64,000 nt of DNA from Candidatus Peribacteraceae bacterium (GTDB lineage Bacteria > Patescibacteriota > Gracilibacteria > Peribacterales > Peribacteraceae), in the NCBI GenBank assembly GCA_041661065.1, contig JBAZVD010000001.1, positions 1,089,237 through 1,153,236 on the forward strand, written 5' to 3'. How positions within the stretch are numbered: position 1 is the stretch's first letter; every line of letters begins with the position of its first letter. The position numbers were made by a program, and so were the translations under genes. Shown one piece after another: positions 1,900-59,548 of this stretch. The notes beneath the pieces are model-generated. The model saw only the letters and a list, made by a program, of their open reading frames with translations, was not told the DNA's origin and did no database searches.

Positions 1900-1987
1900 T
1901 TTTGATGGAAGACGGTCGCACGCCAGGTGGGGGTGAGGGAGAAGGCCGTGTGCTGTTATCCCCTCTTCCACGATCATTCCGAGGTTA

Positions 1988-2178
1988 GGCCGGAGCCGCG
2001 CGCCACGGTCGGTGGAAGAACCAGAAGTTGAGCAGAAGCATAGAGAACAAGGTAGTCTTAAACTTCCAGACGCGACGGGGCCCCGGAAGCGGGACAAGAG
2101 GACATTCACATTTCCTTTGGCGCGCGGAGCGCTTTTCTTTGCCACTTTCTTTTGTCGCCCTGACAAAAGAAAGTGGGG
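1988..2178 (+). repeat. Dispersed structured element, copy A
   Basis: GGCCGGAGCCGCGCGCC at the 5' end can pair with GGCGCGCGG at 2119-2127. Ends in a perfect 15-bp hairpin, CCACTTTCTTTTGTC-GCCCT-GACAAAAGAAAGTGG (2142-2176). Homologous to 8013-8234, 24198-24384 and 26873-27033. Confidence 0.85.
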
Positions 2179-2187
2179 AACATTACT

Positions 2188-2262
2188 GCATTACGGGAAG
2201 GCCATCCTTCCATCCGCGAGCTCAAAGCTCGCGACAGTATCGGTTTAAAAACCGATGTCACG
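2188..2262 (+). repeat. Three-hairpin module X, copy 2
   Basis: Same three hairpins as 1824-1899. Differences lie in the stems: stem 2 is fully paired here where copy 1 has one mismatch, and stem 3 is ATCGGTT/AACCGAT here versus CACCGG/CCGGTG in copy 1. Confidence 0.8.
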
Positions 2263-2364
2263 CCTGTGTGTGCTGTCTGTATATTTGGCTTCCCTCAGGG
2301 CTCCCTGCAATTCCCCCCTCCCCATTCTTGCCGTCCTTTGGATGATCGCTACACTCCACCTCCC

Positions 2365-3839: not shown

Positions 3840-4445
3840 ATGCGCTTTTCCGTCACCACCCAATACACGCTCATCACCATCGCCGCCGTCATTGTGGGGG
3901 CGGTGGGCTCTTCTCTGTGGACGGAGGCGAGCCTGACTGCGGAGCGTGCCGCGCCCTTCCCCCAGGGGACGCTCGTTGCGGATGACGCGGATCCCCTCTT
4001 CCTCACGGAGGGGGAAAAATGGGCGCAGATCGGCGGCGGCTTCCGCTCCGGTTCCCACACGCACCTGCGCAGGCTGGTGACGGTGGAGCAGCTGGTGAGC
4101 GCCGCTTGGACCTTTCCCTCGGTGGCGCCGGGAACCTACAAGCTCTACACCACGTGGATCCGCGGCATGACCCACGCGACGGGCGTGTCGTACCTGTTGC
4201 GCGGCCCCTCCCGTTCCCCCGACCTCACCAACCCCATCCTCTTCACCGCGCGCGTGAACCAGTCGAGAACCCCCGAGGGGAGGCAGTGGGGCGAGGGTCG
4301 CCGCACGTGGGAAGAGCTGGGGACGTTCGTGGTGGAGCAAGCGGGCCCCCTCACCCTCACCGTGCAGGGCAAATCCTCGGAGCGCTTCGACGCGGACGCG
4401 GCCATCCTGGTGCCGGTGAGCACGCCCGCGCCTGCCGCTCCATAA
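3840..4445 (+). CDS. Membrane-anchored hypothetical protein (C-terminus weakly golvesin-C-like)
   Basis: ATG at 3840 gives MRFSVTTQYTLITIAAVIVGAVGSSLW (TM anchor). An alternative ATG lies at 3774. The C-terminal pattern GTYKLY..W....TW..LG.F.V......L.V....FDADAAILVP suggests the domain call. Confidence 0.6.
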   Translation: MRFSVTTQYTLITIAAVIVGAVGSSLWTEASLTAERAAPFPQGTLVADDADPLFLTEGEKWAQIGGGFRSGSHTHLRRLVTVEQLVSAAWTFPSVAPGTYKLYTTWIRGMTHATGVSYLLRGPSRSPDLTNPILFTARVNQSRTPEGRQWGEGRRTWEELGTFVVEQAGPLTLTVQGKSSERFDADAAILVPVSTPAPAAP

Positions 4446-8012: not shown

Positions 8013-8234
8013 GGCCCCGCGCGCCACGGTCGGCGGAACAACATGAGGGAGAGCAGGGCTACAAGGAGAAGGTCGTCTTTCATTTCCACATGCGACGGGG
8101 CCCCGGAATTGGAACAACGGCTCAATGACATTTCCTTTGGCGCGCGGCCTGCCCACCATAGCTCCATCAGGAGCGAAGGTGGGAGCGCTTTTCTTTGCCA
8201 CTTTCTTTTGTCGCCCTGACAAAAGAAAGTGGGA
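8013..8234 (+). repeat. Dispersed structured element, copy B
   Basis: GGCCCCGCGCGCCACGGTCGG... CATTTCCTTTGGCGCGCGG, with the same 15-bp hairpin as copy A at 8198-8232. Carries an extra ~35-nt internal insertion. Confidence 0.85.
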
Positions 8235-8308: not shown

Positions 8309-8345
8309 TCATTTCCCATTTTGCATTTCCAATTTCTCATTTCCT
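8309..8345. repeat. Solo heptamer-repeat arm (AATGCAA/TTGCATT family) overlapping the antiporter stop
   Basis: CTCATTTCCCATTTTGCATTTCCAATTTCTCATTTCC matches the right arms at 20761-20807, 21209-21242 and 54518-54550. Confidence 0.7.
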
Positions 8346-10049
8346 CCCCATCACCGCCTTCATCCTCTTGTGGCTGAACTTCAAATGCTCCAAATGCCGC
8401 GCTTTCTCCGTCAAAAACTTCTTCAAGTCCAAACCATATTCCTCGATGAGGAGTGACGTGTGGTAGCCGCTCAGGAACTGCGGCGTGATCACGTAGCTGG
8501 CGCCCAACTGGTAGAGGTGCAGGGCTTCATCCACCTGCTGCGACACCACGATGACGATGGCGTCCTTGTTGGCGGCGCGCACGGCGCGGACGATGAGGAC
8601 GGTGGTGTCGAAATCGCGCAGCGTGGAGACCACCATTTTGGCGCGGCCGAAGTCCAATTCCTCCAGCAGCTCGGCATCGCCCAAATCGCCGTACTTGCAG
8701 TCGATCCCCTCCTTGGCCAATTCCGTGATGGCTTTGGGGTTGTAATCCACCACGAGGAAGGATTTCCGCATTTTCCGCAGGGCCTCCAGGACGTTGAGGC
8801 CGATGCGCTCGTACCCCAGCAGCAGGATATCGTGATCCTTCTGCCGCATGTGCAAGTGCTCATCCACCTTCTTCCCCTGACGCTCGAAGAGGGAGAGGGG
8901 CTGCTGCAGCCAGCCGTAGAGGCGCTCCGCATGGTGGATGCCGTACGTGGAGAGGGCGATGGTGAGCAGGCCCACGAAGGTGACGAAGGAGAGGACGGAA
9001 GGCGGCACGTGGCCGAGGCGTACGCCAAGGGCGACGAGGATGAAGGAGAATTCGCTCACCTGCGCCAAGGCCATTCCCGTGCGGAAGCCCGTGCGCTTGG
9101 TGTACCGCATGCGCCCCATGAGGAACATGATGATGAGCGGGTTGCCGACCAACACGAAGAGCGAGAACACCGCCACGGCGACCAGCTGCTTGGCCACGTC
9201 ATCCAGCACCAGCTGGGAACCGAGCAGCACAAAGAAGATGACGATGAAGAAGTCGCGCATTGGGCGCAGCTTGGCGCCGATCTCGAACCGGTAGGGCGAG
9301 AGGGAGAGGACGATGCCCGCCGCCAGCGCGCCGATCTCCATGGAGAGCCCGAGCGAAAAGCTGAGCGCCGCAATGGCGAAGCACCAGCCGATGGAGAAGA
9401 GGAGGAGCAGTTCCTGCGAGGCGGCCACGGCCTTGAGCAGCCAGGGAAGGAGGAAGAGCCCCGCCACCAGCAGCACCGACGCCAGCGTGAGGCCGCGCAG
9501 CGCCATGCGGCCCAGGATCATCTCCCAACCTTCCGTCCCGCCGTCCATGGAAGAGACGGCCACCAGGAGCAGCATGGCGATGACGTCCTGCACGATGAGG
9601 AACCCCGTGGAAATGCGGCCGTGGAGGGTTTCCAGTTCTCCTGCGTCCGTGAGGAGCTTCATGACGATGATGGTGCTGCTGAAGGTGAGCGCCACCGCGA
9701 CATAGAGCGAGACGACGGGCGCAAACCCCAGGAGGCGGCCCAGCACGTATCCCACCGCGGCGGTGAACACCACTTGTCCCATGCCCGCCACGAGCGACAC
9801 TTTGCCCACCTCTTTGACCACGCGGGGGTTGAGGTTCATGCCCACGAGGAAGAGGAGGAACGAGACACCCATCTGCGAGAAGAGTTCCAGCTCTTCCGTG
9901 GAATGGAGCAGGTTCAACCCGTAGGGGCTCACCACCAAACCCGCCAGCAAATAGCTGATGATCACGGGCTGCTTGAGCGCCCGCATGAGGAGCGCCAGCG
10001 CCACCACTGTGCACACCACGACCGTGACGGTGAGGAGGGTTTCTTGCAT
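8337..10049 (-). CDS. Monovalent cation:proton antiporter (CPA2/Kef-type) with C-terminal RCK/TrkA-N domain
   Basis: About 12 TM segments followed by a Rossmann-like ILLLGYERIGLNVLEALRK...VVDYNP domain. 570 aa. Confidence 0.85.
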   Translation of the reverse strand: MQETLLTVTVVVCTVVALALLMRALKQPVIISYLLAGLVVSPYGLNLLHSTEELELFSQMGVSFLLFLVGMNLNPRVVKEVGKVSLVAGMGQVVFTAAVGYVLGRLLGFAPVVSLYVAVALTFSSTIIVMKLLTDAGELETLHGRISTGFLIVQDVIAMLLLVAVSSMDGGTEGWEMILGRMALRGLTLASVLLVAGLFLLPWLLKAVAASQELLLLFSIGWCFAIAALSFSLGLSMEIGALAAGIVLSLSPYRFEIGAKLRPMRDFFIVIFFVLLGSQLVLDDVAKQLVAVAVFSLFVLVGNPLIIMFLMGRMRYTKRTGFRTGMALAQVSEFSFILVALGVRLGHVPPSVLSFVTFVGLLTIALSTYGIHHAERLYGWLQQPLSLFERQGKKVDEHLHMRQKDHDILLLGYERIGLNVLEALRKMRKSFLVVDYNPKAITELAKEGIDCKYGDLGDAELLEELDFGRAKMVVSTLRDFDTTVLIVRAVRAANKDAIVIVVSQQVDEALHLYQLGASYVITPQFLSGYHTSLLIEEYGLDLKKFLTEKARHLEHLKFSHKRMKAVMGRK

Positions 10050-10710: not shown

Positions 10711-10822
10711 GTGTGTTGTTTCCTCCACCCCTACCCCCTCCTCCGCTGGAGGAGGGGAATGTTTGCTGTTTGTGTCCTCCCCTTCCTCCAAAGGAGGAAG
10801 GGGCCGGGGGATGGAGGAGTGA
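10711..10822. repeat. G/C-tract double-hairpin element (CCCCTCCCC family), intergenic copy
   Basis: CCTCCACCCCTACCC, CCTCCTCCGCTGGAGGAGG, spacer AATGTTTGCTGTTTGTGT, CCTTCCTCCAAAGGAGGAAGG, GGGGGATGGAGG. Same layout as 48525-48648 in the opposite orientation. Confidence 0.8.
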
Positions 10823-13395: not shown

Positions 13396-13470
13396 GCGTA
13401 TTACGTATTACGTATCCCGTATGACGTATACAGGAACAATACGCGATACGTAATACGTTCTACGCAATAC
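13396..13470. repeat. Heptamer hairpin (CGTATNN / NNATACG family)
   Basis: Left arm CGTATTA CGTATTA CGTATCC CGTATGA CGTATAC, loop AGGAACA, right arm ATACGCGATACGTAATACGTTCTACGCAATAC. Lies in the sufC/ferredoxin divergent region. Confidence 0.9.
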
Positions 13471-13505
13471 CCCTCCAAGGCTCCTTCCGCTACACTCTTC
13501 TCGCT

Positions 13506-20005: not shown

Positions 20006-20656
20006 CGGCACGACGTTCTTCTCCCCGTACTTCAAGGACTTCAGGAATACCGGCAACACTTCCTTCACGTCCTTCATCTCCGCGCGCACCGCACCCCGGG
20101 AAGAGAGGAACCGCTCATGGTCGGAGAGGAGCTCACCCGTCCACGGTGCGCCCGAGGGGTACGCGTCTCCCAGCTTCCCCAGGTCCATCCACGCCGCTTC
20201 CGGGAATGCTTTGGCGAAGGAACCGAACCCACGGACGAAGAGCTCGATTTTCTTGGTGGAATGGAGCCATAAAAAATTTGTGTGTTTTTTCCCCTCTCCC
20301 CCTCGCTCCCCCTCCCCCGATGGGGGAGGGGGAAGGGGGGTGGGGGCGGAAACACGCACAGCACACAACTCGCTCAAATGGATGCCGGCCACCGGCACAT
20401 TGAGGGAGAACGCCAGCGCGTTGGCGAACGCCGCCGCCACCCGCAGGCTGGTGAACCCGCCGGGTCCCGTGACGCACGCGACCCGTCCGATCCCCTCCTT
20501 GGACCACCGGGCTTCCGCGAGGAGCGCCTCCAGCAGAGGGAGGAGGTCGGCATCCGAGATGCGGCGGTCCACCTCCTTTAATGAGACAACCGCGTCATCC
20601 GTGACGCAGGCGACGAGCCCCGGGTTGCCGGCGAGGTCGAGGAAGAGGGTGTTCAT
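19985..20656 (-). CDS. tsaB: tRNA threonylcarbamoyladenosine biosynthesis protein TsaB
   Basis: MNTLFLDLAGNPGLVAC...IGRVACVTGPGGFTSLRVAAAFANALAFSLNVPVAGI (TsaB/YeaZ N-terminal pattern). Confidence 0.85.
   Translation of the reverse strand: MNTLFLDLAGNPGLVACVTDDAVVSLKEVDRRISDADLLPLLEALLAEARWSKEGIGRVACVTGPGGFTSLRVAAAFANALAFSLNVPVAGIHLSELCAVRVSAPTPLPPPPSGEGERGGEGKKHTNFLWLHSTKKIELFVRGFGSFAKAFPEAAWMDLGKLGDAYPSGAPWTGELLSDHERFLSSRGAVRAEMKDVKEVLPVFLKSLKYGEKNVVPWYGRKW
20277..20369. repeat. G/C-tract hairpin element (CCCCTCCCC family) in frame inside tsaB
   Basis: TTTGTGTG..CCCCTCTCCCCCTCGCTCCCCCTCCCCCGATGGGGGAGGGGGAAGGGGGGTGGGGG..CACAGCACACAA. Translated on the minus strand as ..PTPLPPPPSGEGERGGEGKK.. 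Confidence 0.85.
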
Positions 20657-20704: not shown

Positions 20705-20807
20705 GAGAATGCAAAATTGTAAATTGAAAATGGATAATGAGAGAGGAGCATCGGCTTCCAGAACCACTCCCATAATTTTCAATTTTCCATTTTCCATTTA
20801 TCATTCC
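20705..20807. repeat. Heptamer hairpin (AATGNNA family)
   Basis: Left arm GAGAATGCAAAATTGTAAATTGAAAATGGATAATGAGAG; right arm CTCCCATAATTTTCAATTTTCCATTTTCCATTTATCATTCC. Confidence 0.9.
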
Positions 20808-20810
20808 TCC

Positions 20811-21773
20811 GTGCCTCCGACTCTCTCCCTCATCATCCCCACCCACAAGCGCGCGGATATCCTCCGCGAGTGCCTCAAGAGGATCGCGGCGCAGACCGTG
20901 AAGGATCAGATCGAAGTGATCGTGGTGAGCGACGGGCAGGACGACGATACAGACCGCCTCTTTGACGGGCATACGCAATACGCAATACGTCATACGCAAT
21001 ACTTCTCCATCCCTAAATCCCAGCAGGGCGTCGCGCGCAATCGCGGCGTGGAGAAAGCGACGGGGGAAATCGTCATGTTCATCGGGGATGATATATTCCT
21101 GGAGCCGGATGCGTGCGAAGTGCATCTTAAAGTGCATGAAAACATGCAAAATGAGAAATTTGAAATGCAAAATGATGGAAGCGATTCAAGAACAAGAACT
21201 GGTGACGGAATTTCAAATTTTTCATTTCCAATTTTGCATTCCGGTTCAGCCGTCCTGGGCTATACCGAGTGGGATCCATCAATGGAGATCACGCCAGTGA
21301 TGGAATGGCTCGACCGGACCGGTTGGCAATTCGGCTATGGCTTCCTCAAACCCTACGAACACCGCGCGATCCCAAAACGCATGCAGCACCGCTTCACCTA
21401 CACCAGCCACATCAGCCTGCCGCGGGAAATCGCGTTGAAGTTCCCGTTCCGCGAAGACGTGACGATGTACGGATGGGAGGACATCGAGTGGGGATGGCGA
21501 TTGGCGCAGGAGAACATTCCCCTCCTCTATGAACCGGACGCGAAGGCGTTCCACCACCACCGGATGACGCCGGAGGATTCCTTGAAGAGGATGGAGACGC
21601 TGGGGAAGTCCGCCGCGCTCTTCGAGAGCATCAATCACGATCTTCATCTGATGCCCAAAGGGATGAAACGTATGGCCTACCGCTTCTTCAGCCTCTTCCC
21701 CACAATGAAGGGAAGGCATGCGCGGGCGTTCCTGAGAGGGATCCATACAGCGGAAGCCCCCCTTTCCTCTTAA
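20811..21773 (+). CDS. Family 2 glycosyltransferase
   Basis: (V/M)PPTLSLIIPTHKRADILRECLKRIAAQT...EVIVVSDGQDDD (GT-A DxD region). The GTG at 20811 is preferred; the upstream in-frame ATG at 20709 lies inside a hairpin element. Confidence 0.8.
   Translation: MPPTLSLIIPTHKRADILRECLKRIAAQTVKDQIEVIVVSDGQDDDTDRLFDGHTQYAIRHTQYFSIPKSQQGVARNRGVEKATGEIVMFIGDDIFLEPDACEVHLKVHENMQNEKFEMQNDGSDSRTRTGDGISNFSFPILHSGSAVLGYTEWDPSMEITPVMEWLDRTGWQFGYGFLKPYEHRAIPKRMQHRFTYTSHISLPREIALKFPFREDVTMYGWEDIEWGWRLAQENIPLLYEPDAKAFHHHRMTPEDSLKRMETLGKSAALFESINHDLHLMPKGMKRMAYRFFSLFPTMKGRHARAFLRGIHTAEAPLSS
20965..21004. repeat. Solo heptamer arm (ATACGNN family) in frame inside the GT2 gene
   Basis: CATACGCAATACGCAATACGTCATACGCAATAC, translated as HTQYAIRHTQY. 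Confidence 0.85.
21141..21242. repeat. Heptamer hairpin (AATGNNA family) in frame inside the GT2 gene
   Basis: Left arm CATGCAA AATGAGA AATTTGA AATGCAA AATGATG, ~37-nt loop, right arm GAATTTCAAATTTTTCATTTCCAATTTTGCATTCC. Translated as ..NMQNEKFEMQNDG...ISNFSFPILHS.. Confidence 0.9.
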
Positions 21774-24197: not shown

Positions 24198-24384
24198 GGC
24201 CGGAGCCGCGCGCCGCCGGCTGGCCGCGGAACCAAGGGAAAAGAACAGGCTGTGGGATACCCCCTTTTCTCTTCCAGACGGTGCGGCGCTGGTATCAACA
24301 TGTAAACCGGTCTGTGTCGTTCCCTTCGGCGCGCGGAGCGCTTTCTTTTCCCCATTTCTTTCTCGCCTTGAGAAAGAAATGGGG
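24198..24384 (+). repeat. Dispersed structured element, copy C
   Basis: GGCCGGAGCCGCGCGCC ... TTCGGCGCGCGGAGCGCTTTCTTTTC, plus the hairpin CCCCATTTCTTTCTC-GCCTT-GAGAAAGAAATGGGG. Both arms differ from copies A and B but remain perfectly paired. Confidence 0.85.
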
Positions 24385-24442: not shown

Positions 24443-26812
24443 GTGAAACTCCCTCCCCTCCCCCTCGTCGTCCTCGACACGGAAACGACCGGCTTCGTGC
24501 CGCGCACGCACCGCGTGATCGAATATGCCGCGGTGAGGGCGGAGGGCGGGAAGGTGACGGATACCTACGAGCAGCTGTTCGCGACGGACGAGATCCCCCC
24601 CGTGGTGGAAGTGATCACGCGCATCCGCATGGAAGACGTGCGCGGGCAACCGACGTTCGAGGAGAAGCGCGAGGAAATCCTTGCCCGCATCCCGGAAGAC
24701 GCGATCATCGTCGGCCAGAATACGCCGTTCGATTTGGGCATGCTCAAGGGCGAAGGGATGGATCTCACGGGGCGGCCATGGGTGGATACCTCCATGCTCG
24801 CCTCCCTCGTTTTCCCGGAACTGGAGAGCTACTCCCTGGGGTACTTGAGCGCCGTGCTCGATTTGAACCACGAGCCCAAGCACCGCGCATTGGGTGACGT
24901 GCGCGCCACGCTCGAACTCCTCAGCCGCGTGTGGGAACGCCTCCTCGAGCTCCCGCCCGGACTGGTGAAGCAGGCGCGGGAGGTGATGGAGCGCGCGCCC
25001 GCCGGCTACCGCCTCCTCTTCGAGGCGCTGCCCGCGTCCGGGAAGAAGGAGACGCCCGCGTGGCTCCGGCACCCCGAAGAGGCGGGCTTCAAGCGCCGCA
25101 CGGTCACTCCCCCGAGCCTCCCGACGCCGAAGAAAGGGGAGATCGCCCTCCGCGAGGAACCGCTCAACCCCGCCGAACTCCAAGCGATCATCGAAGCCGC
25201 ACAGGAGGATACGTCCGTGCGGCATTGGATCGCCGTCAAGAATCTGGACGCCGCCGTACGCCGCCTCTCCTTTGAGAAAGGCGTGCGCATCCTGTACCCG
25301 CCCGGCCATCTGCTGGATCCCGAGGCGGTGAAGAGATGGACGAAGGCGGATTCCTTGACCGCCGATGAAGCAACGCTCCTGCTCAAGATTCACTGGTACT
25401 CGCCCTTCACCCGCAATGACCTCCCCCTGCACGGAGGGGAGGAATCCGTATGGCGCGGGACGCTGGCTTGCACCGATGCTTCCAAGGCGTACACGGACCA
25501 ATTCCAAGACCTGCCGGGGGTGGTGCTCATCGACCACCAGCAGCTCCTGCGTTTTCTTCAGGATGAGGAGCATCCCGCCGCGGCGGCATTGGCGGAGCCG
25601 GCGCACATCATCATCGACGACGCCTCCATGCTGGAGGACACCGCCACCAAGGCCTACGGCTGGTATGCGGACGTCTCCGCCCTGCGCGCAGGGAGCGAGC
25701 GCAACCCGTCACTCACGCGCATCACGGACCTGCTGCAACTGTGGATCGAGAAGGTGCGCGGCGGCCTGGACGTGCGCGCACTGAATGCGTCCGACCTCAC
25801 CGCGCCGGAGGCGAAAGGGCTCCGCGCGCAGATTGAGGAACTGCTGGAACAGGACGGAGACCTGCCTTCACCGGTCCGCGCCCAATGGGAAGGCATTACG
25901 CACATCCTCAACCCGGAGAACCTGGCGCGGCGCTACGCGTGGATCGAGCAGCGCATGAACGGCTCGCACACCCTGCAATCCGTTCCCGAGCATGTGTCGG
26001 ATTTCCTGCAGGACTTCCTCTACTCCCGCTTCTCCACAACCCTCCTTATCCCGCCCGAAAGCACATCTGAACTCCGAGAGATCCTCCCTGTCACTGTCGT
26101 GTCTTCCCCCTCTCCTGAGGGGAGAGGGGGAGCGAGGGGGAGAGGGTATGAACTTCCCCTCTCTTTCCCCCTCACGCCCCTCCATGAAATTCTGGGGAAC
26201 CCGCCCGAAGGGAAAACGATTTTGCTCATTCCCGGCAAGGGAACGATCGAGAACATGTACGTGCGGTACACGGAGATGCTCGAGGAGCGCGGCGTCACCC
26301 TCATCTGCCTCGGCGTGAGCGGCGGGCAGGGGCGCATGCGCGCGGAATTCCTGGCCGCGGAAGGGACGGTAATGTGGCTCGTGACGCCGTGGGTGTTCGA
26401 AGGGCTGGAGCTGCCGCCGGAGACCGTTGACCATTTGATCATCAGCGCGCTCCCCTTCGACTACGCTTCCCACCCCGTCCTCAGCCGCCGTGCGGCCCGC
26501 TACAAGAGCGGCTTCATGGATTACTTCCTCCCGCGCCTCAAGCACCGCCTGTTCCGCGTCCTCCGCACCTTCGCGCGGTTCAAGACGGAGGAAGCGGACG
26601 TGCAAATACTGGATGACCGCTTGCGGAGCAAGGAATACGGGAAGGAGGTGATTGCGTATTTGAATCTGTTCTCGGTACAGGGAGAACGTCATGCAAAATT
26701 AGAAATGCACAATGAAATCCCACAGCCCCCCCGCACGCGGAAAACAAACACGGCTGCGAAGAAAAAGGAATCCTCCAAAGAACAGAAAAAGGACCAGTTG
26801 AAGTTGTTTTAG
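24443..26812 (+). CDS. DnaQ-type 3'-5' exonuclease fused to a DinG-like helicase-fold domain (ATPase motifs degenerate)
   Basis: Exo motifs VVLDTETTG, IIVGQNTPFDLGML and HRALGDVRATLEL. The C-terminus resembles the DinG/XPD Helicase_C_2 domain (WLVTPWVFEGLELPPETVDHLIISALPF). No GxGKT/S Walker A found, and DEAH is replaced by IIIDDASML. The GTG at 24443 is preferred. Confidence 0.75.
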   Translation: MKLPPLPLVVLDTETTGFVPRTHRVIEYAAVRAEGGKVTDTYEQLFATDEIPPVVEVITRIRMEDVRGQPTFEEKREEILARIPEDAIIVGQNTPFDLGMLKGEGMDLTGRPWVDTSMLASLVFPELESYSLGYLSAVLDLNHEPKHRALGDVRATLELLSRVWERLLELPPGLVKQAREVMERAPAGYRLLFEALPASGKKETPAWLRHPEEAGFKRRTVTPPSLPTPKKGEIALREEPLNPAELQAIIEAAQEDTSVRHWIAVKNLDAAVRRLSFEKGVRILYPPGHLLDPEAVKRWTKADSLTADEATLLLKIHWYSPFTRNDLPLHGGEESVWRGTLACTDASKAYTDQFQDLPGVVLIDHQQLLRFLQDEEHPAAAALAEPAHIIIDDASMLEDTATKAYGWYADVSALRAGSERNPSLTRITDLLQLWIEKVRGGLDVRALNASDLTAPEAKGLRAQIEELLEQDGDLPSPVRAQWEGITHILNPENLARRYAWIEQRMNGSHTLQSVPEHVSDFLQDFLYSRFSTTLLIPPESTSELREILPVTVVSSPSPEGRGGARGRGYELPLSFPLTPLHEILGNPPEGKTILLIPGKGTIENMYVRYTEMLEERGVTLICLGVSGGQGRMRAEFLAAEGTVMWLVTPWVFEGLELPPETVDHLIISALPFDYASHPVLSRRAARYKSGFMDYFLPRLKHRLFRVLRTFARFKTEEADVQILDDRLRSKEYGKEVIAYLNLFSVQGERHAKLEMHNEIPQPPRTRKTNTAAKKKESSKEQKKDQLKLF
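26103..26183. repeat. G/C-tract hairpin element (CCCCTCCCC family) in frame inside the DinG-like gene
   Basis: CTTCCCCCTCTCCTGAGGGGAGAGGGGGAGCGAGGGGGAGAGGG matches the reverse complement of the tsaB copy. Translated as ..SSPSPEGRGGARGRGYELPLSFPLTP.. Confidence 0.85.
26690..26720. repeat. Solo heptamer arm (AATGNNA family) in the 3' end of the DinG-like gene
   Basis: CATGCAAAATTAGAAATGCACAATGAAATCC, translated as HAKLEMHNEI. Confidence 0.7.
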
Positions 26813-26872
26813 AGAACTCATAAAGCCGGTAACTGCTCACTGCCCCATCTCTCTCTCAACAAACGGAGGGTT

Positions 26873-27033
26873 GGCGCGCCGCAGGGGGTGTAGGGGAAGG
26901 CCCTGCTTCGACATGTTCGCCGACGAGTCAGCCCCGAATCCTTGGAGGGGCTGACGAGGAGGCACAGGGCCGGGTGGAGGGGCTTCGGCGCGCCGGCGTT
27001 TTGGCGCCACCTTTGTCGCCGGACAAAGGTGGC
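26873..27033 (+). repeat. Dispersed structured element, copy D (most divergent)
   Basis: GGCGCGCCGC ... CTTCGGCGCGCCGGCGTTTTGGC, plus the hairpin GCCACCTTTGTC-GCCG-GACAAAGGTGGC (27006-27033). Confidence 0.65.
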
Positions 27034-30440: not shown

Positions 30441-30899
30441 GGGGTCTGCTCCTTCGATGATCGCTTCGGCGTAGTCCGCCAACGGCGGACGAAGCCTGAG
30501 AGGAACGTCCGGGCGCCATTGGAACGCCATGCGGGTAACACCCGTCCGCGCGCCACATATCCGGTAAAGGCGCGCGAGGACCAGTGCCACAGAGACGATA
30601 CCCCGCATCCTTCCTGGCAGGGAGAGCAGCAAAACATGTTCTGAGCTGTTGCATCTCTGCCGAGAAGGGTGCGGGGGGTGAAACGCCTCCCCCAGGGAGG
30701 ATCGTGCACTGCACGTGCATGCATGATCGGCAAACTCATGGTGGCGCAAGGAGGAATTGGGTTGCGGGAACCGGCGATGGTTCCGTCGCCCCCGCTACCC
30801 CTCCGCTTGAGACGGCGAACAATCGCCGTCCTAGAGAGATGATCATCCTTCCCGCGGTTGCGGGACAGACAGAACCCGGCGTATGAAGGAGCAGAACGT
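30441..30899 (+). ncRNA. rnpB: RNase P RNA (bacterial type A-like), ~459 nt
   Basis: GAGAGGAACGTCCGGGCGCC (cf. GAGGAAAGUCCGGGC), AGTGCCACAGAGACGATACCCCGC (cf. GUGCAACAGAAACAUACCGCC) and GGGACAGACAGAACCCGGCGTA (cf. ACAGAACCCGGCUUA). P1 pairing between GTCTGCTCCTT (30444-54) and AAGGAGCAGAAC (30886-97). Confidence 0.88.
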
Positions 30900-35601: not shown

Positions 35602-36300
35602 TTAAGAGGAAGAGCTGGAAGTGCTGGAACTGCTCGCGCTGCAGGGGAGATACGTCTGCGCATCGGAGCACATGAAACTCTGGCACACTTTCCACGTGTA
35701 GATCATCCCGGCGCAGCTGGGGGCGGAACACACTGCACCGCCGCACGCGGCCCCCCGCGGCTCATCGCCCGGCGGCAGTGTGAATGTTCCCTCAAACGTC
35801 CGTTCGTAGATATGGGGCGCCTGGAGGCGGATCGCCCTGCTGACGCGGAAGGAAACGCGAAAGCTTTGCAATAGGGTGGAGGCGGACGTGTTCCAGACGC
35901 GGAACTCATCCAAGGCCACTTGCGGCGAGGTGATGACCTGCTTGGTGGCGCGGCGGATGACCACCAGGGAGCCGCTGAGCGCACCGATGATGGTGGGGTT
36001 CATGGCGCCGCTCCCGGACTGGAGCGTGAGGACGATCCCTTCCTCTTGGGGAGGGGGATCCAGGATGCGTTCCGCCGCCGCAAGGCGCCCGATTTGCTGC
36101 AGCACCTGCAGGCCGTTCTGCTCCACCAGCGAAACCGTCTGTTGCAGCAGGCGGTTCTCCGTCGCCGAGAAGAGGAGCGGAAGCACCGTGAACCCCACCA
36201 CCGCGAAGATGGCGACAAAGACGAGCAATTCTATGAGCGTGACACCGGGACGCGCCAGCTTTACGGGAACGCCGGTATCGCGTGGAAGCAGGGTTATCAT
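35602..36300 (-). CDS. Prepilin-type pseudopilin (short paralog of the 988-aa protein)
   Basis: ARPG|VTLIELLVFVAIFAVVGFTVLPLLFSATENR. The ATG at 36300 overlaps the upstream stop as ATGA. About 190 aa align with the N-terminus of ORF 36297..39263. Poly-Ser tail. Confidence 0.8.
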   Translation of the reverse strand: MITLLPRDTGVPVKLARPGVTLIELLVFVAIFAVVGFTVLPLLFSATENRLLQQTVSLVEQNGLQVLQQIGRLAAAERILDPPPQEEGIVLTLQSGSGAMNPTIIGALSGSLVVIRRATKQVITSPQVALDEFRVWNTSASTLLQSFRVSFRVSRAIRLQAPHIYERTFEGTFTLPPGDEPRGAACGGAVCSAPSCAGMIYTWKVCQSFMCSDAQTYLPCSASSSSTSSSSS

Positions 36301-39263
36301 TCGGGAGCGAGAATGCAGGGACTGCATACGGCCCCCATACCTTTGACAGCACACTTGTCCGGGAAGCTTTGGAGACCGCCGCATCCGATTGCTCCCGCTC
36401 CAGGATTCTCCATGCAGAACTCACCTCCGGTAACGCATTCGTACATGCAATCGGTACTCCGCGCGGGATTCTGCCGTGGCCAGGTGCCGAAGGGCGGATA
36501 ACCGAGCTGATCCGGGCTCCACCTCGACTCACCTTCATGAGTATTGCACCAATGCTGTCCCCTGTAATCCACTACGGTTTCCGCGCTCCCGCATTCTCCA
36601 CCCTGCAGCTCCGCGATGCCGGTGTACGTTCTTTCGGTCGCCGTAGCCGACGTGACATAGCGGTAAATAGCCAACCCGCCCGAAAGCGTCGCTTCTCCCA
36701 AGAGCGTTCCCCCGTCAACGTAGAGCATCGCTTGCTGGATGGGGATGGTGTTGAGGTAAGCATCCCGGCAACTCATGGTGAGGGTCACCTGTGCGCCCGG
36801 CGCCACGGGGCCGGTGAGCACTGCACCGCCCACACTCGCCTCCAGCAAGCACGTTTCGGTGACACTGGGGCAGAAGCTGCAATCGTAGACCTGCTTCGAA
36901 CACATCCCTTTCTCCACACCGTTCACCGTCAGCGTATACGATTCCATCCCGGGCACGATACCCGCCGCGAATTGCCGGGTAGCCGTTTGGCCGTTCACGG
37001 TGGCGATTCCCCCCTCGATCTGTACGCTCCCTGCCAGCGCTTCCGTACAGGTGAAGGAAGCGATGACGTCCTCACTGGTGCAGACTTTATCCACGGGAGG
37101 CGCGAGCGTAGCTTCGGTGACGCCGTCGCAGGCACAAGTGAAGGAGGGGGTAGGTACTTCCGTACATCCGTCCACGCAAGCCTGATAGGTGCCGTATTCC
37201 GTTTCACCCACGCCGCAGGAAACGGAATACGGGCAACTGCCGCCGCAAGGCTGGCAACTCCCCATGGCGCAGGCACCGTTCATCCCCAAATTCGAAAGAC
37301 AGGGGCCCCCTTGATTTATGTAACACGTCTGTCCGTCAGGGGCTAACACTCCCGTCCCGCATTGGCCGTCCAGCGCACCTACGTAGCAGGGAACGTAGAG
37401 TGTCGTGGGGGTGGAACACTGGTCCGTGGCGGGGTCGCAGCAGTACGCGCACTCTCCGAGTATCGTCCCGCAGCTCAGGGGGCTCCCGTCCTCCTTCTTC
37501 ATGTCCACGCCGTTCACCGTGAGCACGTAGGAGTGCGTACCCGCCCCTGCGGGAGTGACATACGCCTTCACCTCGCCGTCCTGGACATAGTAAGGGTCGT
37601 TGCCGCTCACCGTAATGGTATCCGAGAGGCTAAACTCATGCGGCTCCGTTGTCCCATACCCGTCGAAGCACTCGTAATTGATGGAGAGCGTATCACCCGT
37701 ACAATAGGAACCGATGTGGGGCGTCGTATCCTCCACGGTGCACCGGCACCAATCGGGCAGGGAGAGATCCGAATACGTCACGGTGGTGGTGAGGGTGATG
37801 GGCGGACCCCCGACGGGTGTCACGTTCGCCGTGTAGGTGATGGTCCCCGCCGCCGCCGAATTCACCTGCCGCGAGGCGGTATTCGCCGCGATGACCGTGG
37901 CGGCGCCGTTGATGAAGGCGGTTTGGATATCCGCCGCCACCGGGGAACCGCCGGAGCTTTTCCAGCAGGTGAGGTTGAGGATGACGGGTTGGTTGATGTA
38001 GTACGGACCGTTCGCCGGGTTCTTGGCTTCCCACTGGCAAGTATACTGCTCAGCCGTGGGCGGCAGGTAGCAGCCGGCACCCACGTTCCACCCCAGGAAA
38101 TTGCAGAAGTTATCCCCCTCCGCATCCGGAATGCACTGCTGCCCCACGGGACAGTCCGCATCACTGCCGCATCCTCCCCCGCAGCCCGCCTGGGAAATCC
38201 AACCCGTGCAAAAACCGCCTTCGCAGACCGGGTAATCGCGCATCTGCCAAGCGGAGGTGTAACACACGGTAGGTGCACCGCAATCCGCATCGCACGTACA
38301 CGTCCTCTGGCAGAAGCCCGAAGGATTGCACATCTCGCCGGGAGGGCAGGCGCCGCACGACCCGGCACTGCTCGCCCCCCCCTGCAACAGGCACTCCGCA
38401 GTGCACCCCGTCCCCGGCGGGTCGCACTGCTCCCCCGTTTCCACCACACCGTTGCCGCAAACGGGCGCGGGTGCGCCGCAAACAGTCGTACACGCCGTTT
38501 GGGTGCTGTAGAAATCCCCCGCGAGCGCCGTGCATTCCGTTGCGGTCTTTGCCAAACAATTGTCTTCCGAACAGCAGTACCCTCCGCAATCCATGGGGAG
38601 GGACACTTCCTGGCATGCCTGTCCTTCACATACTTCCCAGGTATAGCTGCCACCCGCGCACGCGGGGGCAGCGCAGGCAACGCCTCCGCATGCCGACCCT
38701 GCCGTCCGGTCCGAAGGCGAAAGGGTGAAGAGCCCCTCAAATGTGCGCGCGTACACCCGCGGATCCTTGAACTGGATGGTGCGTTCCACCCGGAACGACA
38801 CGCGGAAACTCTGCTGGGTGGCCGAAGCGGAGGTGTTCTGGATCCGGAAATCCTTCACAACCACCTCCGATGACGTGACTTCCTGCTTCGTACGGTTGCG
38901 GATGATGATCATGGTGCCGCTCTGGACGCCGATTATGGTGGGATTCGTCGCTCCGCATCCCGTTTGGAGCGTGAGGACCGAGCCCTCCTGCTGCGGCGGA
39001 GGATCGGTGATGCGCTCCGCGTACTGGAGCCGGTAGCCGATGTTCTGAAGGACTTGCGCGCCGTTCTGCTCCACCAGCGACATGCTCTGTTGGTTCATCC
39101 TGTTTTCCGTGGCGGTGAAGAGGAGGGGGAGGACGGTGAACGCCACGATCGCGAACACCGCGACGAATACGAGCAACTCCACGAGTGTCACTCCCGGCCG
39201 CAGCCGACGGGATGCGTGCGCCGACCGCATCGGGATGACTCCGGAAGAAAGAAGAGGGGACAT
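36297..39263 (-). CDS. Giant prepilin-type pseudopilin with Cys-rich, repeat-containing C-terminal extension (adhesin candidate)
   Basis: RLRPG|VTLVELLVFVAVFAIVAFTVLPLLFTATENR. Includes a CGNGVVETGEQCDPPG module (Myxococcus-type Cys-rich repeat pattern), dozens of Cys residues, and recurring beta-rich modules (..SYVLTVNGVDMK.., ..SYTLTVNGVEKG..). Confidence 0.85.
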   Translation of the reverse strand: MSPLLSSGVIPMRSAHASRRLRPGVTLVELLVFVAVFAIVAFTVLPLLFTATENRMNQQSMSLVEQNGAQVLQNIGYRLQYAERITDPPPQQEGSVLTLQTGCGATNPTIIGVQSGTMIIIRNRTKQEVTSSEVVVKDFRIQNTSASATQQSFRVSFRVERTIQFKDPRVYARTFEGLFTLSPSDRTAGSACGGVACAAPACAGGSYTWEVCEGQACQEVSLPMDCGGYCCSEDNCLAKTATECTALAGDFYSTQTACTTVCGAPAPVCGNGVVETGEQCDPPGTGCTAECLLQGGASSAGSCGACPPGEMCNPSGFCQRTCTCDADCGAPTVCYTSAWQMRDYPVCEGGFCTGWISQAGCGGGCGSDADCPVGQQCIPDAEGDNFCNFLGWNVGAGCYLPPTAEQYTCQWEAKNPANGPYYINQPVILNLTCWKSSGGSPVAADIQTAFINGAATVIAANTASRQVNSAAAGTITYTANVTPVGGPPITLTTTVTYSDLSLPDWCRCTVEDTTPHIGSYCTGDTLSINYECFDGYGTTEPHEFSLSDTITVSGNDPYYVQDGEVKAYVTPAGAGTHSYVLTVNGVDMKKEDGSPLSCGTILGECAYCCDPATDQCSTPTTLYVPCYVGALDGQCGTGVLAPDGQTCYINQGGPCLSNLGMNGACAMGSCQPCGGSCPYSVSCGVGETEYGTYQACVDGCTEVPTPSFTCACDGVTEATLAPPVDKVCTSEDVIASFTCTEALAGSVQIEGGIATVNGQTATRQFAAGIVPGMESYTLTVNGVEKGMCSKQVYDCSFCPSVTETCLLEASVGGAVLTGPVAPGAQVTLTMSCRDAYLNTIPIQQAMLYVDGGTLLGEATLSGGLAIYRYVTSATATERTYTGIAELQGGECGSAETVVDYRGQHWCNTHEGESRWSPDQLGYPPFGTWPRQNPARSTDCMYECVTGGEFCMENPGAGAIGCGGLQSFPDKCAVKGMGAVCSPCILAPE

Positions 39264-47854: not shown

Positions 47855-49477
47855 ATGACGAAGCGCGCCCTCCTTTCCGTGTCGGACAAAGCAGGTCTCG
47901 AAGACCTGGGAAAGGGCTTACAGAAGCTTAAATTCCACATCATTTCCACGGGAGGAACCGCGCGTTTTTTGCGGGAGAAAGGGGTGGAGGTGACGGACGT
48001 TTCCGACGTGACCAAGTTCCCCGAGTGCTTCTCCGGCAGGGTGAAGACCCTGCACCCCCTCATTGCGGGCGGCATACTGTTCGAGCGCAGGAACGAGGAG
48101 CACCGCAGGCAGGCGAAAGAGTTGGGGATAGAGCCGATCGACGTGGTGGTGGTGAACCTGTATCCGTTCGCCCAAACCGTGAACGATCCGAGCAAGACGA
48201 GGGAGGAGGCTGTTGAGCAAATCGACATCGGCGGGCCCACCCTCCTGCGTGAGGCGGCGAAGAACCACAGGGACGTGACGGTCGTGTGCGACCCGGGTGA
48301 TTACGGACGCGTCGTACGGGAGCTGGAAGCGAACGGAGAAACCACCGAACAGCTCCGGCGGGAACTCGCCGCGAAGGTGTTCCTCCACACCGCCGCGTAC
48401 GACGAGAAGATCGCCGAGTACCTTTCGGAAGGGACCTACCGCGGCGTGATGCTCACGGGAGGAACGCCGCTGCGGTACGGGGAGAACCCGCACCAGTGGG
48501 GGAAATATTACACGTTGTTCGATTCCCTCTCCCCCCTACCCCCTCCCCCGGTGGGGGAAGGGGAGCACGCTCGAAGCATTCAAACAACAACAGAACAACA
48601 CACATCCCCTTCCCCCCTTGGGGGAAGGGCTAGGGTAGAGGGATGGGGCATCCTCTTACAGGGGAAACCTCTGAGTTATCTGAACATCCTGGACGCCGAC
48701 GGCGCATGGTCCGCGGTGCATGACTTTTCCGACCCCACCGCCGTCCTCGTGAAGCACGCGACCCCCTCGGGCATCGCATCCCACCCGGACATCACCGAGG
48801 CGTTCCAGCGCGCGTACGACGCCGACCGTCTTTCCGCCTTCGGCGTGATCATCGCGCTCAACAGGACGTGCACGGCCGCCATCATCCAAAAACTGATCGA
48901 CCAGAAGATCTTCACGGAGGTGATCGTGGCGCCGGAGTACGAGCCGCAAGCCCTGGAACTGCTCAAGAAGAAGCCGAACCTGCGCGTGATCAAGCAGCAC
49001 AACGGCGAGCGTATGAAAGGCCGGGTCCTCTACCGCTCCGTGATGGGCGGAATGCTGGTGCAGGAGAGCGATTCGCGCGTGGTGACGGAGAAGGACCTGA
49101 CGACGGTGACCAAGGTGAAGCCGACCGCGGAGCAAGTGCGCGACCTCCTCTTCGCGTGGCGCGCGGTGAAGAGCGCCAAATCGAACGCCATCGTGTTCGC
49201 CAAAGACCAGGTGACGGTCGGCATCGGCTCCGGTCAGACGAGCAGGGTGGATGCGACGTGGATTGCGGCCAAGAGGGCGGGAGAGAATTGTCAGGGCGCG
49301 GTGATGGCCAGCGACGCCTTCTTCCCCTTCCCCGATTCCGTGGAGGAGGCCGCCAAGCACGGCATCGCGGCCATCATCCAACCGGGTGGCTCCGTGCGCG
49401 ACGCCGAAGTGTTCGCCAAAGCGGAGGAGCTGGGAATGGTGATGGTCACCACGGGGATACGGGCATTTCGCCATTAA
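47855..49477 (+). CDS. purH: Bifunctional AICAR transformylase / IMP cyclohydrolase PurH (with ~40-aa repeat-derived insertion)
   Basis: [22 protein letters not shown]...[10 protein letters not shown]...VKTLHP...VVVNLYPF; LRYGENPHQ; [16 protein letters not shown]; [10 protein letters not shown]; the C-terminus ends in ..GIRAFRH. Confidence 0.95.
48525..48648. repeat. G/C-tract double-hairpin element (CCCCTCCCC family) in frame inside purH
   Basis: CCCTCTCCCCCCTACCC, CCTCCCCCGGTGGGGGAAGGGG, A-rich spacer, CCCCTTCCCCCCTTGGGGGAAGGG, CTAGGGTAGAGGGATGGGG. Translated as ..[41 protein letters not shown].. Confidence 0.9.
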
Positions 49478-54477: not shown

Positions 54478-54550
54478 CTGAATGCAAAATGAATAAATGC
54501 AAAATGAAAAAGAGACCATTTCGCATTTCCAATTTCCCATTTTGCATTCT
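54478..54550. repeat. Heptamer hairpin (AATGNNA family)
   Basis: Left arm CTGAATGCAAAATGAATAAATGCAAAATGAAAAAG; right arm CATTTCGCATTTCCAATTTCCCATTTTGCATTC. Confidence 0.9.
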
Positions 54551-54553
54551 TTT

Positions 54554-56636: not shown

Positions 56637-56720
56637 CGTATTACGTATTGCGTAGTGCGTAGTACGTTGGCGCAAGAAGAACGAAGATACGCAATACGCC
56701 ATACATAATACGTAATACTC
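56637..56720. repeat. Heptamer hairpin (CGTANNN / ATACGNN family) upstream of RNase J
   Basis: Left arm CGTATTACGTATTGCGTAGTGCGTAGTACG; right arm GATACGCAATACGCCATACATAATACGTAATAC. Confidence 0.9.
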
Positions 56721-58830: not shown

Positions 58831-58836
58831 TTCACC

Positions 58837-58903
58837 ATACGTAATACGAAATACGTGATACGGTATACGTGTCCGTATTTTGTATTACGTATTACGTATT
58901 TCG
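58837..58903. repeat. Heptamer hairpin (ATACGNN / CGTATNN family) downstream of RNase J
   Basis: Left arm CATACGTAATACGAAATACGTGATACGGTATACG; right arm CGTATTTTGTATTACGTATTACGTATTTCG. Confidence 0.9.
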
Positions 58904-58909
58904 CATCAC

Positions 58910-59548
58910 ATGAAATATTCCGCCATCCTCTTCGATCTCGACGGCACGCTCGTCCATTCCATCGACCTCTACGCCAGCGCCATGCGGGAGACGTTCGCGG
59001 AGGCCGGCGTGGATCTTTCGGAGGCGCAGTTCCGGAGCTCCTATGGGTCGGGATTGAAGTTGAAGGACTGGCTGGTGACGTACGGGCTCCCCGAAGCGTC
59101 CGTGGACACCATACGCACGGCGCGCGACAAGCGCTACGTGAAGCTGCTACGGGAACAGGCGGAGTGGATCCGGGGCGCGGAGGACCTCCTCACCGCGCTC
59201 AAGGGGGCACATCCGCTCGGGCTCATCACCGGCTCGTGGATGAGCTACGTGGACGCCATCGATGAGCGGCTTTCCGTGAAGCCCTACTTCCGGCACATCG
59301 TCACCGCGGAACACGTGGGCGACTTCCCCAAGCCCCATCCCCACGGCCTCCTCCTCGCGGCGGACCGCCTGGGCGTGGAACCGGAGCGGTGCCTGTACGT
59401 GGGGGACCAGCTCTTCGACGTGGATGCAGCCAAGGCGGCCGGCATGGCGAGCTGCTGCATCCGCGGCGCCTACACGCCCTCCGAGGCGCTCGAACGGGCG
59501 GATGTGGTGGTGGAGAATCTTGGCGACGTTTGGAAGGTGATCGGGTGA
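58910..59548 (+). CDS. HAD-IA family phosphatase (phosphoglycolate phosphatase-like)
   Basis: MKYSAILFDLDGTLVHS (DxDGT motif I), LGLITGS (motif II) and YVGDQLFDVDAAKAAG (motifs III/IV). ATG at 58910. Confidence 0.85.
   Translation: MKYSAILFDLDGTLVHSIDLYASAMRETFAEAGVDLSEAQFRSSYGSGLKLKDWLVTYGLPEASVDTIRTARDKRYVKLLREQAEWIRGAEDLLTALKGAHPLGLITGSWMSYVDAIDERLSVKPYFRHIVTAEHVGDFPKPHPHGLLLAADRLGVEPERCLYVGDQLFDVDAAKAAGMASCCIRGAYTPSEALERADVVVENLGDVWKVIG

Follow-up and report, generated by a model that had tools for sequence, protein, structure and literature searches.

This locus raises the question of whether a structured sequence that recurs between its genes is a non-autonomous mobile element or a multicopy non-coding RNA. 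The window analyzed here, a stretch of 64,000 nt, starts within a 16S rRNA gene and also contains an RNase P RNA and one tRNA, which a tRNA/tmRNA scan of the window returned as tRNA-Thr only. Of 20 longer ORFs scanned against Pfam, 19 belong, like the ORFs adjoining the copies, to ordinary housekeeping-type chromosomal families or gave no match; the families matched in the window include SufB/D, NusA, a DinG-like exonuclease-helicase, SecA, type IV pilus proteins, RNase J and PurH. The GC skew of the window gave no guide to the direction of replication. The initial annotation had placed four copies (A to D) of the element in this window, all in the same orientation and all intergenic. A covariance-model scan of the 64 kb returned exactly these four places, all on the + strand and at the positions claimed, with E-values of 2e-12 for copy A, 3e-6 for the 3' module of copy B, 2e-12 for copy C and 1e-37 for copy D, the last match being partly by construction because the model (R1) was built from copy D and its orthologues. 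Mapping of the neighboring ORFs confirmed that each copy lies between genes, as follows.

Copy A: between an ORF on the - strand (1336-1770) and an ATG at 2365.
Copy B: between the start of sufB (7948) and the stop of a Na/H exchanger gene (8337).
Copy C: between the stop of nusA (24126) and the start of the dinG-like gene (24440).
Copy D: between the stop of the dinG-like gene (26812) and the stop of a convergent sugar-transferase gene (27035).

The copies have a common order of parts, i.e. a G-rich leader, a GC clamp of 9-10 bp (P1) around an interior of about 105-114 nt, an (A/U)GCGC followed by a U-rich linker, and a perfect hairpin of 12-15 bp with pyrimidines in its 5' arm and purines in its 3' arm. 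The parts of each copy are located as follows.

1985..1995, + strand: G-rich leader of copy A, directly 5' of P1; a GG..GG leader precedes P1 in all family members.
1996..2004, + strand: 5' strand of P1 in copy A, CCGCGCGCC (covariance model and 9-mer count).
2005..2118, + strand: interior of copy A, a 114-nt core of the A/B/C type, 80% identical to that of copy B over 84 nt.
2119..2127, + strand: 3' strand of P1 in copy A, GGCGCGCGG (covariance model and 9-mer count).
2128..2141, + strand: linker of copy A, AGCGC-UUUUCUUU-G, a mirror image of the 5' arm.
2133-2140, + strand: proposed Hoogsteen strand of copy A, with a parallel 8/8 match to AAAAGAAA.
2142..2176, + strand: perfect 15-bp hairpin of copy A, with a pyrimidine 5' arm and a purine 3' arm.
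8017..8147, + strand: P1 of copy B (8017-8025 / 8139-8147) and its 113-nt interior.
8148..8183, + strand: 36-nt hairpin insert of copy B, CCTGCCCACC...GGTGGG, between P1 and the linker, missing from copy A.
8184..8232, + strand: linker (H-tract 8189-8196) and 15-bp hairpin (8198-8232) of copy B.
24206..24336, + strand: P1 of copy C (24206-24214 / 24328-24336) and its 113-nt interior.
24337..24384, + strand: linker of copy C, AGCGC-UUUCUUUU (H-tract 24342-24349), and 15-bp hairpin (24350-24384).
26872..26995, + strand: variant P1 of copy D (26872-26881 / 26986-26995) enclosing the conserved D-type core (E=1e-37).
26873-26881 and 26986-26994, + strand: clamp strands of copy D, GGCGCGCCG/CGGCGCGCC.
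Core of copy D, within this clamp: G-rich J1/2, P2 (GGCCCUG/CAGGGCC), P3 with tandem G·A pairs and the loop CCGAAUCCUUGGAGG, and G-rich J2/1.
26996..27033, + strand: degenerate linker of copy D, GCGUUUUGGC, and 12-bp hairpin (27006-27033).

The long-range closing stem that had been proposed is therefore present, as the pair CCGCGCGCC/GGCGCGCGG in copies A, B and C and as a variant pair in copy D, and all four terminal hairpins are perfect and have the arms quoted in the initial annotation. The P1 9-mer occurs nine times in the window against 2.8 expected, and six of the nine occurrences are the pairs of copies A, B and C. The folding energies of the four copies are 3.0-5.0 sd below those of dinucleotide shuffles, and in copy D the outer pairs of the clamp are swapped in a compensatory manner with respect to its orthologues. 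The span originally assigned to the first copy, 1988-2290, does hold copy A but also includes an unrelated three-hairpin repeat of 77 nt at 2186-2262, and the resemblance reported between the TG-rich tails that follow the hairpins of A, B and C is weak and concerns low-complexity sequence. A second copy of the 77-nt repeat, which is unrelated to the element, lies at 1823-1899.

The view that the four copies represent one element held for the scaffold they have in common (leader, P1, linker and hairpin) but not for what the scaffold encloses, since there are at least two unrelated interiors. Pairwise comparison of the interiors gave z=12.8 for A and B, z=3.5-5 for A/B against C (3.5 for A and C) and values about 0 for D against the others, and the D interior could not be aligned to those of A, B and C in either orientation. 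In copies A and C, the covariance model aligns the leader, P1, the bases immediately following it and the complete 3' module, and skips the interiors. Between A and B, the interiors are 80% identical compared with 100% in the 3' module, where the identical block spans 52 nt (2126-2177 / 8182-8233) and includes, in A, the last two bases of P1. The design of the family is a constant scaffold around an exchangeable core, the A/B/C core being lineage-restricted and the D core widely conserved. A sequence-only profile aligned copy A end to end (E=1e-8), and some distant relationship between A and the D type may therefore remain. A three-sequence fold of A, B and C has a P2 of its own, with an exchange of GUCG/CGAC to GCCGC/GCGGC, that is tentative because it comes from too few sequences to trust. 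The insert module of 36 nt found in copy B was also seen, by eye, in locus L168 and inside a tRNA-like gene of L195.

The best named relatives of the DinG-like protein encoded in the window belong to Candidatus Peribacteraceae/Peregrinibacteria, which assigns the chromosome to the Peregrinibacteria, a CPR phylum of very small, uncultured bacteria. A first pattern scan of representative genomes, which used the P1 pair with its gap, gave two true matches among those listed, L004 and L028, and both are named Peregrinibacteria genomes with D-like copies; the other listed matches, mostly in GC-rich genomes, were discarded as chance. A sharper pattern scan of metagenomes returned 72 stretches, 17 of which carry the element on reading, all of them of the copy-D type, and an additional D-like copy with a large insert was found in L194. 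D-type orthologues lie in L004, L028, L124, L134, L136, L141, L145, L153, L164, L186, L187 and L194. No orthologues of A, B or C were found in these scans; copy C fits the metagenome pattern, yet no C-like locus was among the matches. The single match in viral contigs lacked the hairpin on reading and was set aside as chance. The four copies are members of an undescribed element family, and matches to it were confirmed in Peregrinibacteria alone. Each short locus recovered has one D-type copy, and the D-type loci have no conserved gene neighborhood and no shared synteny.

The compensatory changes noticed among the window copies hold when more copies are aligned. In an alignment of 12 D-type sequences, which has 44 pairs in four helices (P1, 10 bp; P2, 7 bp; P3, 13 bp; and the 3' hairpin) and 97.9% of its cells paired, 21 of the 44 pairs have changed on both sides, compared with 11.2±1.5 in shuffles, and none of 500 shuffles reached 21; controls in which the partners were slid pair 40-52%. 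Covariation extends to P2 and P3, some of whose pairs are G·U. P3 contains one or two tandem G·A motifs and is capped by the invariant loop CCGAAnCCUUGnAGG, and the large internal loop between P1 and P2 is G-rich and nearly invariant on both strands. The D-type structure is under selection, and its invariant single-stranded G-rich loops suggest a candidate binding surface for protein or RNA. Shorter relatives were recognized by reading in three loci. In L187 and L141, a GC stem of 9 bp encloses ~22 nt and precedes the same linker and hairpin, and these short variants face the D-type copy tail to tail, whereas another variant lies upstream of folK in L168. These shorter relatives define the constant unit as the GC stem, the linker and the hairpin, with stem contents that vary.

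The mirror relation between the GCGCTTTTCTTT box and the hairpin, absent from the initial annotation, is the most informative feature of the element. In every well-preserved module, the linker's pyrimidine tract reads as the 5'-arm tract reversed, and is neither its reverse complement nor a direct repeat of it. As a mirror of the 5' arm, the linker matches the 3'-arm purine tract in parallel at each base, U with A and C with G, and this parallel match extends over 7-8 of 7-8 positions in 13 distinct modules. The register is also fixed, since the linker tract directly follows GCGC, or GTGC in a single case, and is matched to the 3' arm from a point 3 nt inside that arm; in most modules, 0-2 nt separate the end of the tract from the hairpin. 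The GCGC that separates P1 from the U-tract hardly varies. Three variants of the tract are asymmetric.

UUUUCUUU with AAAAGAAA: modules A, B and L145-1332.
UUUCUUUU with AAAGAAAA: module L124.
UCUCUUU with AGAGAAA: the L028 group and L191.

In these three asymmetric variants the parallel match is perfect, whereas antiparallel Watson-Crick pairing would leave a C·A mismatch, and shuffled linkers reached the observed run in 0.4-1.1% of trials per variant; in the symmetric variant UUUCUUU the parallel and antiparallel matches are indistinguishable. Switching between variants needs matched changes in the linker, the 5' arm and the 3' arm. Because parallel and antiparallel are discriminated at one position per variant, this evidence is good and significant, but not conclusive. 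The linker has no complementary A-rich partner downstream and is therefore not an outer stem. In copy D, where the linker has three parallel matches, the triplex signature is weak, and the L194 relative likewise has a degenerate linker, the two having 3-4 matches. C-rich pyrimidine/purine hairpins, considered as added support for a triplex, were partly set aside, the apparent mirror of L201 being a nested outer stem. The pattern of linker and arm is the sequence signature of a predicted pyrimidine-motif triple helix of U·A-U and C+·G-C triples in the major groove. On general geometric grounds, the order Hoogsteen strand, short connector, Watson-Crick strand, loop and purine strand is topologically sound, and it resembles that of H-type pseudoknots, in which loop 1 crosses the deep groove.

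We regard it as about an even prospect that the elements constitute a Peregrinibacteria-specific family of structured RNAs, roughly 170-230 nt long, whose 3' hairpin is capped by a triplex. In such a model, whose transcription, strand, triplex formation and stabilizing role we infer from the sequence, the elements would most likely be read from the + strand, and their scaffold would consist of the G-rich leader, the 9-10-bp P1 and the 3' module, with P1 enclosing the exchangeable core. The U-rich linker leaving P1 would sit in the major groove of the hairpin, parallel to the A-rich 3' arm, forming ~7-8 U·A-U triples and one or two C+·G-C triples, and would then cross to the start of the 5' arm. 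This compact triplex-capped hairpin would be expected to resist 3'-to-5' exonucleases and thus to provide a stable 3' end, either for a free small RNA or for the mRNA of the gene that, in most cases, directly precedes the element in the same orientation. A bolder version, according to which the linker and hairpin would be a bacterial 3'-terminal "triplex cap" that makes several unrelated small-RNA cores exonuclease-resistant, as a convergent counterpart, in bacteria of very small genome size, of the MALAT1/ENE elements, and the D core would represent a conserved RNA of a new kind with a regulatory or scaffold role in this phylum, is put forward tentatively, with a likelihood that falls some way short of even. 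The cap may perhaps also be present on mRNA 3' ends.

The assignment to the + strand is weak. Consensus folding gives -79.9 kcal/mol for the + strand against -71.8 for the - strand, and by our own count the well-supported helices contain six G·U pairs against three A·C pairs. Also by our count, about 10 of 15 non-redundant elements follow an ORF of the same direction at a distance of 9-60 nt, and about half of this set is flanked by convergent genes. The mirror rule equally permits a purine-motif triplex on the - strand. A consensus scan revealed no sigma-70-like promoter upstream of any of the window copies; copy B, at least, would need a promoter of its own, since it is antisense to both of its neighbors. 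Upstream of the leader, several copies have in common an A/C-rich stretch, CAAAAACAACA, as well as AT-rich boxes.

The closest known systems are the ENE/MALAT1 triplex elements, for the logic of the triples, and the bacterial intergenic repeats, for the genomic habit. The ENE-type elements of MALAT1, MENbeta and PAN and the module described here both combine a pair of U-rich strands with an A-rich tract that is encoded in the genome and lies close to the RNA 3' end; both follow a rule of stacked U·A-U triples interrupted by C+·G-C, which in our case is a rule of sequence only, and the presumed role, protection from 3' decay, is alike. However, the U-rich internal loop of an ENE clamps a distal tail, whereas the module would use a 5' linker and a simple hairpin whose 3' arm is the A-tract. 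Moreover, ENEs occur in eukaryotic lncRNAs, viruses and plant/fungal transposon RNAs, in contrast to the bacterial CPR host of the module, which, unlike an ENE, is attached to a GC-clamped folded core. To our knowledge, protection of RNA ends by a triple helix has so far been known mainly from eukaryotes and viruses, and we know of almost no regulatory RNAs described in CPR bacteria. A covarying family of ~180 nt restricted to one CPR phylum is a concrete entry point to CPR regulatory RNA, and its design, with a fixed scaffold and a variable core, raises the question of which machinery recognizes the scaffold. If the triplex does form at RNA 3' ends, triplex stabilization would extend from eukaryotic and viral lncRNAs to bacteria, and a compact (about 50 nt), self-contained stabilizing module would become available for RNA engineering.

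The triplexes of H-type pseudoknots (telomerase RNA and the SAM-II and preQ1-II riboswitches) are like the module in that a strand passes into the major groove of the helix that follows it, lies parallel to the purine strand of this helix and is joined to the 5' strand by a very short connector. In contrast to these pseudoknots, the module has no convincing conserved loop-to-linker pairing (stem 1), the complementarity being inconsistent across copies, would contain 7-8 consecutive triples rather than 2-5, and stands without a ligand-sensing or catalytic context. In part of a 2026 review on RNA triplexes, the bacterial examples given are riboswitches and a group II intron (PMC13541005).

As for the choice between a mobile element and a non-coding RNA, the structure and covariation reported initially stood, turnover of sites was seen, and the hallmarks of an ordinary MITE were absent. 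In relatives with a preserved nusA-dinG-transferase order, the sites occupied by C and D in the window are empty, namely in L193 (78% DinG identity), in L197 (72%), where the two stop codons at dinG/transferase are 2 nt apart, and in L195 (60%); L196 (84%) covers the D site alone, and that site is also empty. In L194, the D site carries instead a gene for an IS200-like Y1 transposase, and the D-like copy is found at a different place and on the opposite strand. The element is absent from the roughly 180 kb sampled from relatives, a small sample when set against whole genomes. Since the elements are missing from sites in relatives whose flanking proteins are 60-84% identical, mobility or rapid turnover is real, with gains, losses or moves of the elements occurring over times comparable to genus-level divergence. 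Such a non-conserved position among relatives is unusual for a housekeeping RNA gene.

The checks for MITE hallmarks revealed neither terminal inverted repeats nor target-site duplications. The sole long-range inverted repeat, P1, is internal, with the conserved leader on its 5' side and the linker and hairpin on its 3' side. Among 16 copies, no target-site duplications above chance were found, the best flanking direct repeats being of 8-11 nt, at inconsistent positions and with P values of about 0.03-0.9 against shuffles. A linked transposase, TnpB or IscB gene, contemplated in the initial annotation, was not found among the 30 ORFs (those adjoining copies and the longer ones) scanned with Pfam, and a tblastn search with the Y1_Tnp of L194 as query found no Y1 transposase in the 64-kb window or in other element-bearing loci. 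The absence of terminal inverted repeats, target-site duplications and a nearby transposase argues that the element is not an ordinary MITE. The pattern of near-identical multiple copies is also absent from the window, since there are four copies in 64 kb, of which A and B have interiors that are 80% identical, and the interiors of C and D are barely or not alignable to those of A and B.

These data bear as well on a different explanation, in which the elements would be DNA-level dispersed repeats of the REP/BIME, ERIC or PATE kind, with the clamp and palindrome forming ssDNA or cruciform structures recognized by a recombinase or an HUH/Y1 transposase encoded elsewhere, and with RNA structure as a by-product. 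The empty orthologous nusA/dinG and dinG/transferase sites in L193, L195, L196 and L197, the Y1 transposase gene at the L194 D site, the lack of shared synteny among D-type loci, the single orientation of the four window copies and the modular mosaic that the elements form with other mini-inserts are all in agreement with it, and so are the stems, which are perfect palindromes with almost no G·U in the hairpins, and the loops, which are reverse-complemented between copies (GGGCA vs UGCCC). We nevertheless consider this explanation unlikely, although it deserves serious attention, because conserved sequence extends beyond P1 on both sides without terminal inverted repeats, target-site duplications do not exceed chance, no Y1 transposase was found in the window or in element-bearing loci other than L194, and the Pfam-scanned ORFs gave no match to a transposase, TnpB or IscB family. 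The density is low, with no copies in about 100 kb of further Peregrinibacteria DNA, and the covariation of the internal helices P2 and P3, which includes some G·U pairs, also argues against it. Furthermore, copies within a genome are strongly diverged whereas orthologues across genomes are conserved, the former divergence far exceeding the latter, which is the opposite of an active MITE or REP family. The constancy of the D-type sequence and fold over deep divergence, together with the genus-level turnover of sites, favors a selected RNA that relocates, and a relocating RNA under selection fits better than an active selfish repeat.

The likeness to such repeats is real in other respects. As with REP/BIME, ERIC, BOX, Correia/NEMIS and RUP, the element is dispersed, intergenic, structured and modular, its positions vary between strains, and it frequently occupies gene 3' ends or the gaps that separate convergent genes. 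It differs from these families by its much lower copy number, by having no terminal inverted repeats or target-site duplications, by a deep within-genome divergence that coexists with conserved, covarying orthologues across genomes, and by its large conserved core with invariant loops. Even if it were a DNA-level repeat, it would still be unusual, because its copies are conserved and covary across genomes.

No known RNA family had been recognized in the element, and this was borne out, as Rfam 15 (4227 models) gave no match to any copy. A scan of the whole window at the gathering threshold returned 16S, RNase P and tRNA only, and searches with copies A and D at E<=10 gave chance miRNA matches on the hairpin or nothing. 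On the 12 D-type loci, no match fell on any element, and tmRNA, RNase P, tRNAs and a SAM riboswitch were found normally in the same loci. Several other identities were discarded. The interiors are not those of an inverton, since none resembles the reverse complement of another (z -2.9 to 0.9); an integron attC site was rejected because, on reading, there is no GTT core of the R''/R' kind (RYYYAAC / GTTRRRY) at either end of the closing stem CCGCGCGCC/GGCGCGCGG; and the differences between A and B are, by reading, not adenine-specific, as they would be in the template and variable repeats of a DGR. A small ORF was rejected for want of a start codon on reading and because the length at the hairpin base varies between copies, which would shift the frame. 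The motifs of hammerhead, 5S, SRP and 6S RNAs are absent or not conserved on reading.

The D type could in principle be a highly divergent universal small RNA (6S, SRP, 5S or Y-like) of which A, B and C would be decayed duplicates. Its conservation across many Peregrinibacteria with one copy per short locus, a closing stem, large internal loop and inner stem that are loosely 6S-like, and the location of the L186 copy ~140 nt downstream of the 16S 3' end, with window copy A 1 kb downstream of 16S, would be in agreement with such an origin. It is, however, very improbable, since Rfam gave no family for A and D at E<=10 and none at the gathering score for the 12 D-type loci, the SRP, 5S and 6S motifs are absent on reading, and a 5S gene is already present in Peribacter genomes that have been published (PMC4736985). 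In addition, the position of the element is clearly not fixed, and it is absent from the small sample, about 180 kb, of relatives.

A structured RNA family with a triplex-capped 3' hairpin also has to be weighed against a conditional terminator or attenuator, in which the 3' strand of P1 would either close the core or form a GGCGC-GCGGA-GCGCU hairpin followed by the U-tract, the large hairpin acting as a second block. A terminator scan flagged this 5-bp hairpin with its U-run in copies A and C, the intervening GCGC is almost invariant, and many copies lie at gene 3' ends or between convergent genes. Like Rho-independent terminators, the element has a GC-rich stem near a U-rich run and lies downstream of genes, but its U-run precedes the main hairpin rather than following it, and a consensus terminator scan found no U-tract after that hairpin. 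The alternative hairpin of 5 bp cannot compete thermodynamically with a P1 of 9-10 all-GC pairs, and neither the downstream gene nor its orientation is conserved, copy B being antisense to both neighbors and copy D facing a convergent gene. The much greater stability of P1 and the lack of a conserved downstream gene place this explanation low, and we judge it improbable; it would, moreover, leave the mirroring of the hairpin arm by the U-tract unexplained. A canonical terminator, a hairpin with a U-tract, was recognized by reading after the 16S gene, at about 1190-1212, which indicates that the module is not the default terminator of this genome.

The intergenic site between dinG and the sugar-transferase gene is an insertion hot spot, because its occupants differ: where the window has copy D, one of the four structured elements A to D (leader, P1, linker and perfect hairpin), locus L194 has an IS200-like Y1 transposase gene, and L193 and L196 contain differing small ORFs.

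L194, 11371-11808, minus strand: IS200-like Y1 transposase gene, bearing end hairpins of its own

Copy B carries a 36-nt insert, composed of CCTGCCCACC, a hairpin and GGTGGG, that appears to be an independent mini-module. By eye, it was found again in another element with the same scaffold, in L168, and a counterpart in L195 appears to split a tRNA-Thr-like gene in its D-loop region.

8148-8183: 36-nt insert of copy B
L168, about 3975-4010, minus strand: counterpart of the insert, by eye
L195, 18511-18552: counterpart of the insert, by eye

A stem sequence, CCGCGCGCCAC...GGCGCGCG, is common to P1, the 9-10 bp GC clamp of the elements, and to one helix of RNase P RNA (P12 on our reading), a match that may be a coincidence or a common recognition feature.

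30546-30580: RNase P RNA helix with P1-like stem
L195, 18730-18765: RNase P RNA helix with P1-like stem

The window has ten perfect hairpins of at least 9 bp; in nine of them the 5' arm was at least 75% pyrimidine, and it was wholly pyrimidine in five of these nine. C-rich hairpins resembling CCCCTCCTCC/GGAGGAGGGG make up a second dispersed family; one of them lies within the DinG-like ORF, adjoining an 11-nt mirrored tract, and another, in L201, is enclosed by an outer complementary stem.

10735-10757: pyrimidine-arm hairpin
10779-10803: pyrimidine-arm hairpin
20307-20333: pyrimidine-arm hairpin
26105-26131: pyrimidine-arm hairpin
48607-48629: pyrimidine-arm hairpin
L201, 4160-4184: pyrimidine-arm hairpin

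A canonical terminator-like hairpin and T-run (about 1190-1212) come after the 16S rRNA gene of the window, the next 63 kb show no 23S gene, and copy A is located 1 kb downstream of the 16S. In L186, an element with the core type of copy D lies about 140 nt beyond the 3' end of the 16S gene, on the same strand. Two copies of a 77-nt repeat (81% identical) were observed, one upstream of element A and the other between its hairpin and TG-rich tail. Comparison of both copies revealed three hairpins in succession, their pairing preserved despite base changes; the repeat matched neither Rfam nor tRNA.

1-1215: 16S rRNA gene region
L186, 2436-3187: 16S rRNA gene region
1823-1899: 77-nt repeat, first copy
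2186-2262: 77-nt repeat, second copy

A 988-aa ORF lacking a Pfam match contains, or lies close to, a 165-nt direct repeat (family D2; 75% identical, 2.9 kb spacing). Tandem heptamers, ATTTCCA/ATTTTGC-like and ATACGYA-like, occupy many intergenic regions of the window, sometimes in both orientations; they constitute repeat families D1, D4, D6, D7 and D12 and are the "heptamer hairpins" of the initial annotation.

36089-36253: 165-nt direct repeat
39037-39201: 165-nt direct repeat
8311-8355: tandem heptamers
13397-13471: tandem heptamers
20707-20805: tandem heptamers
20971-21017: tandem heptamers
21142-21254: tandem heptamers
54480-54555: tandem heptamers
56637-56719: tandem heptamers
58823-58920: tandem heptamers
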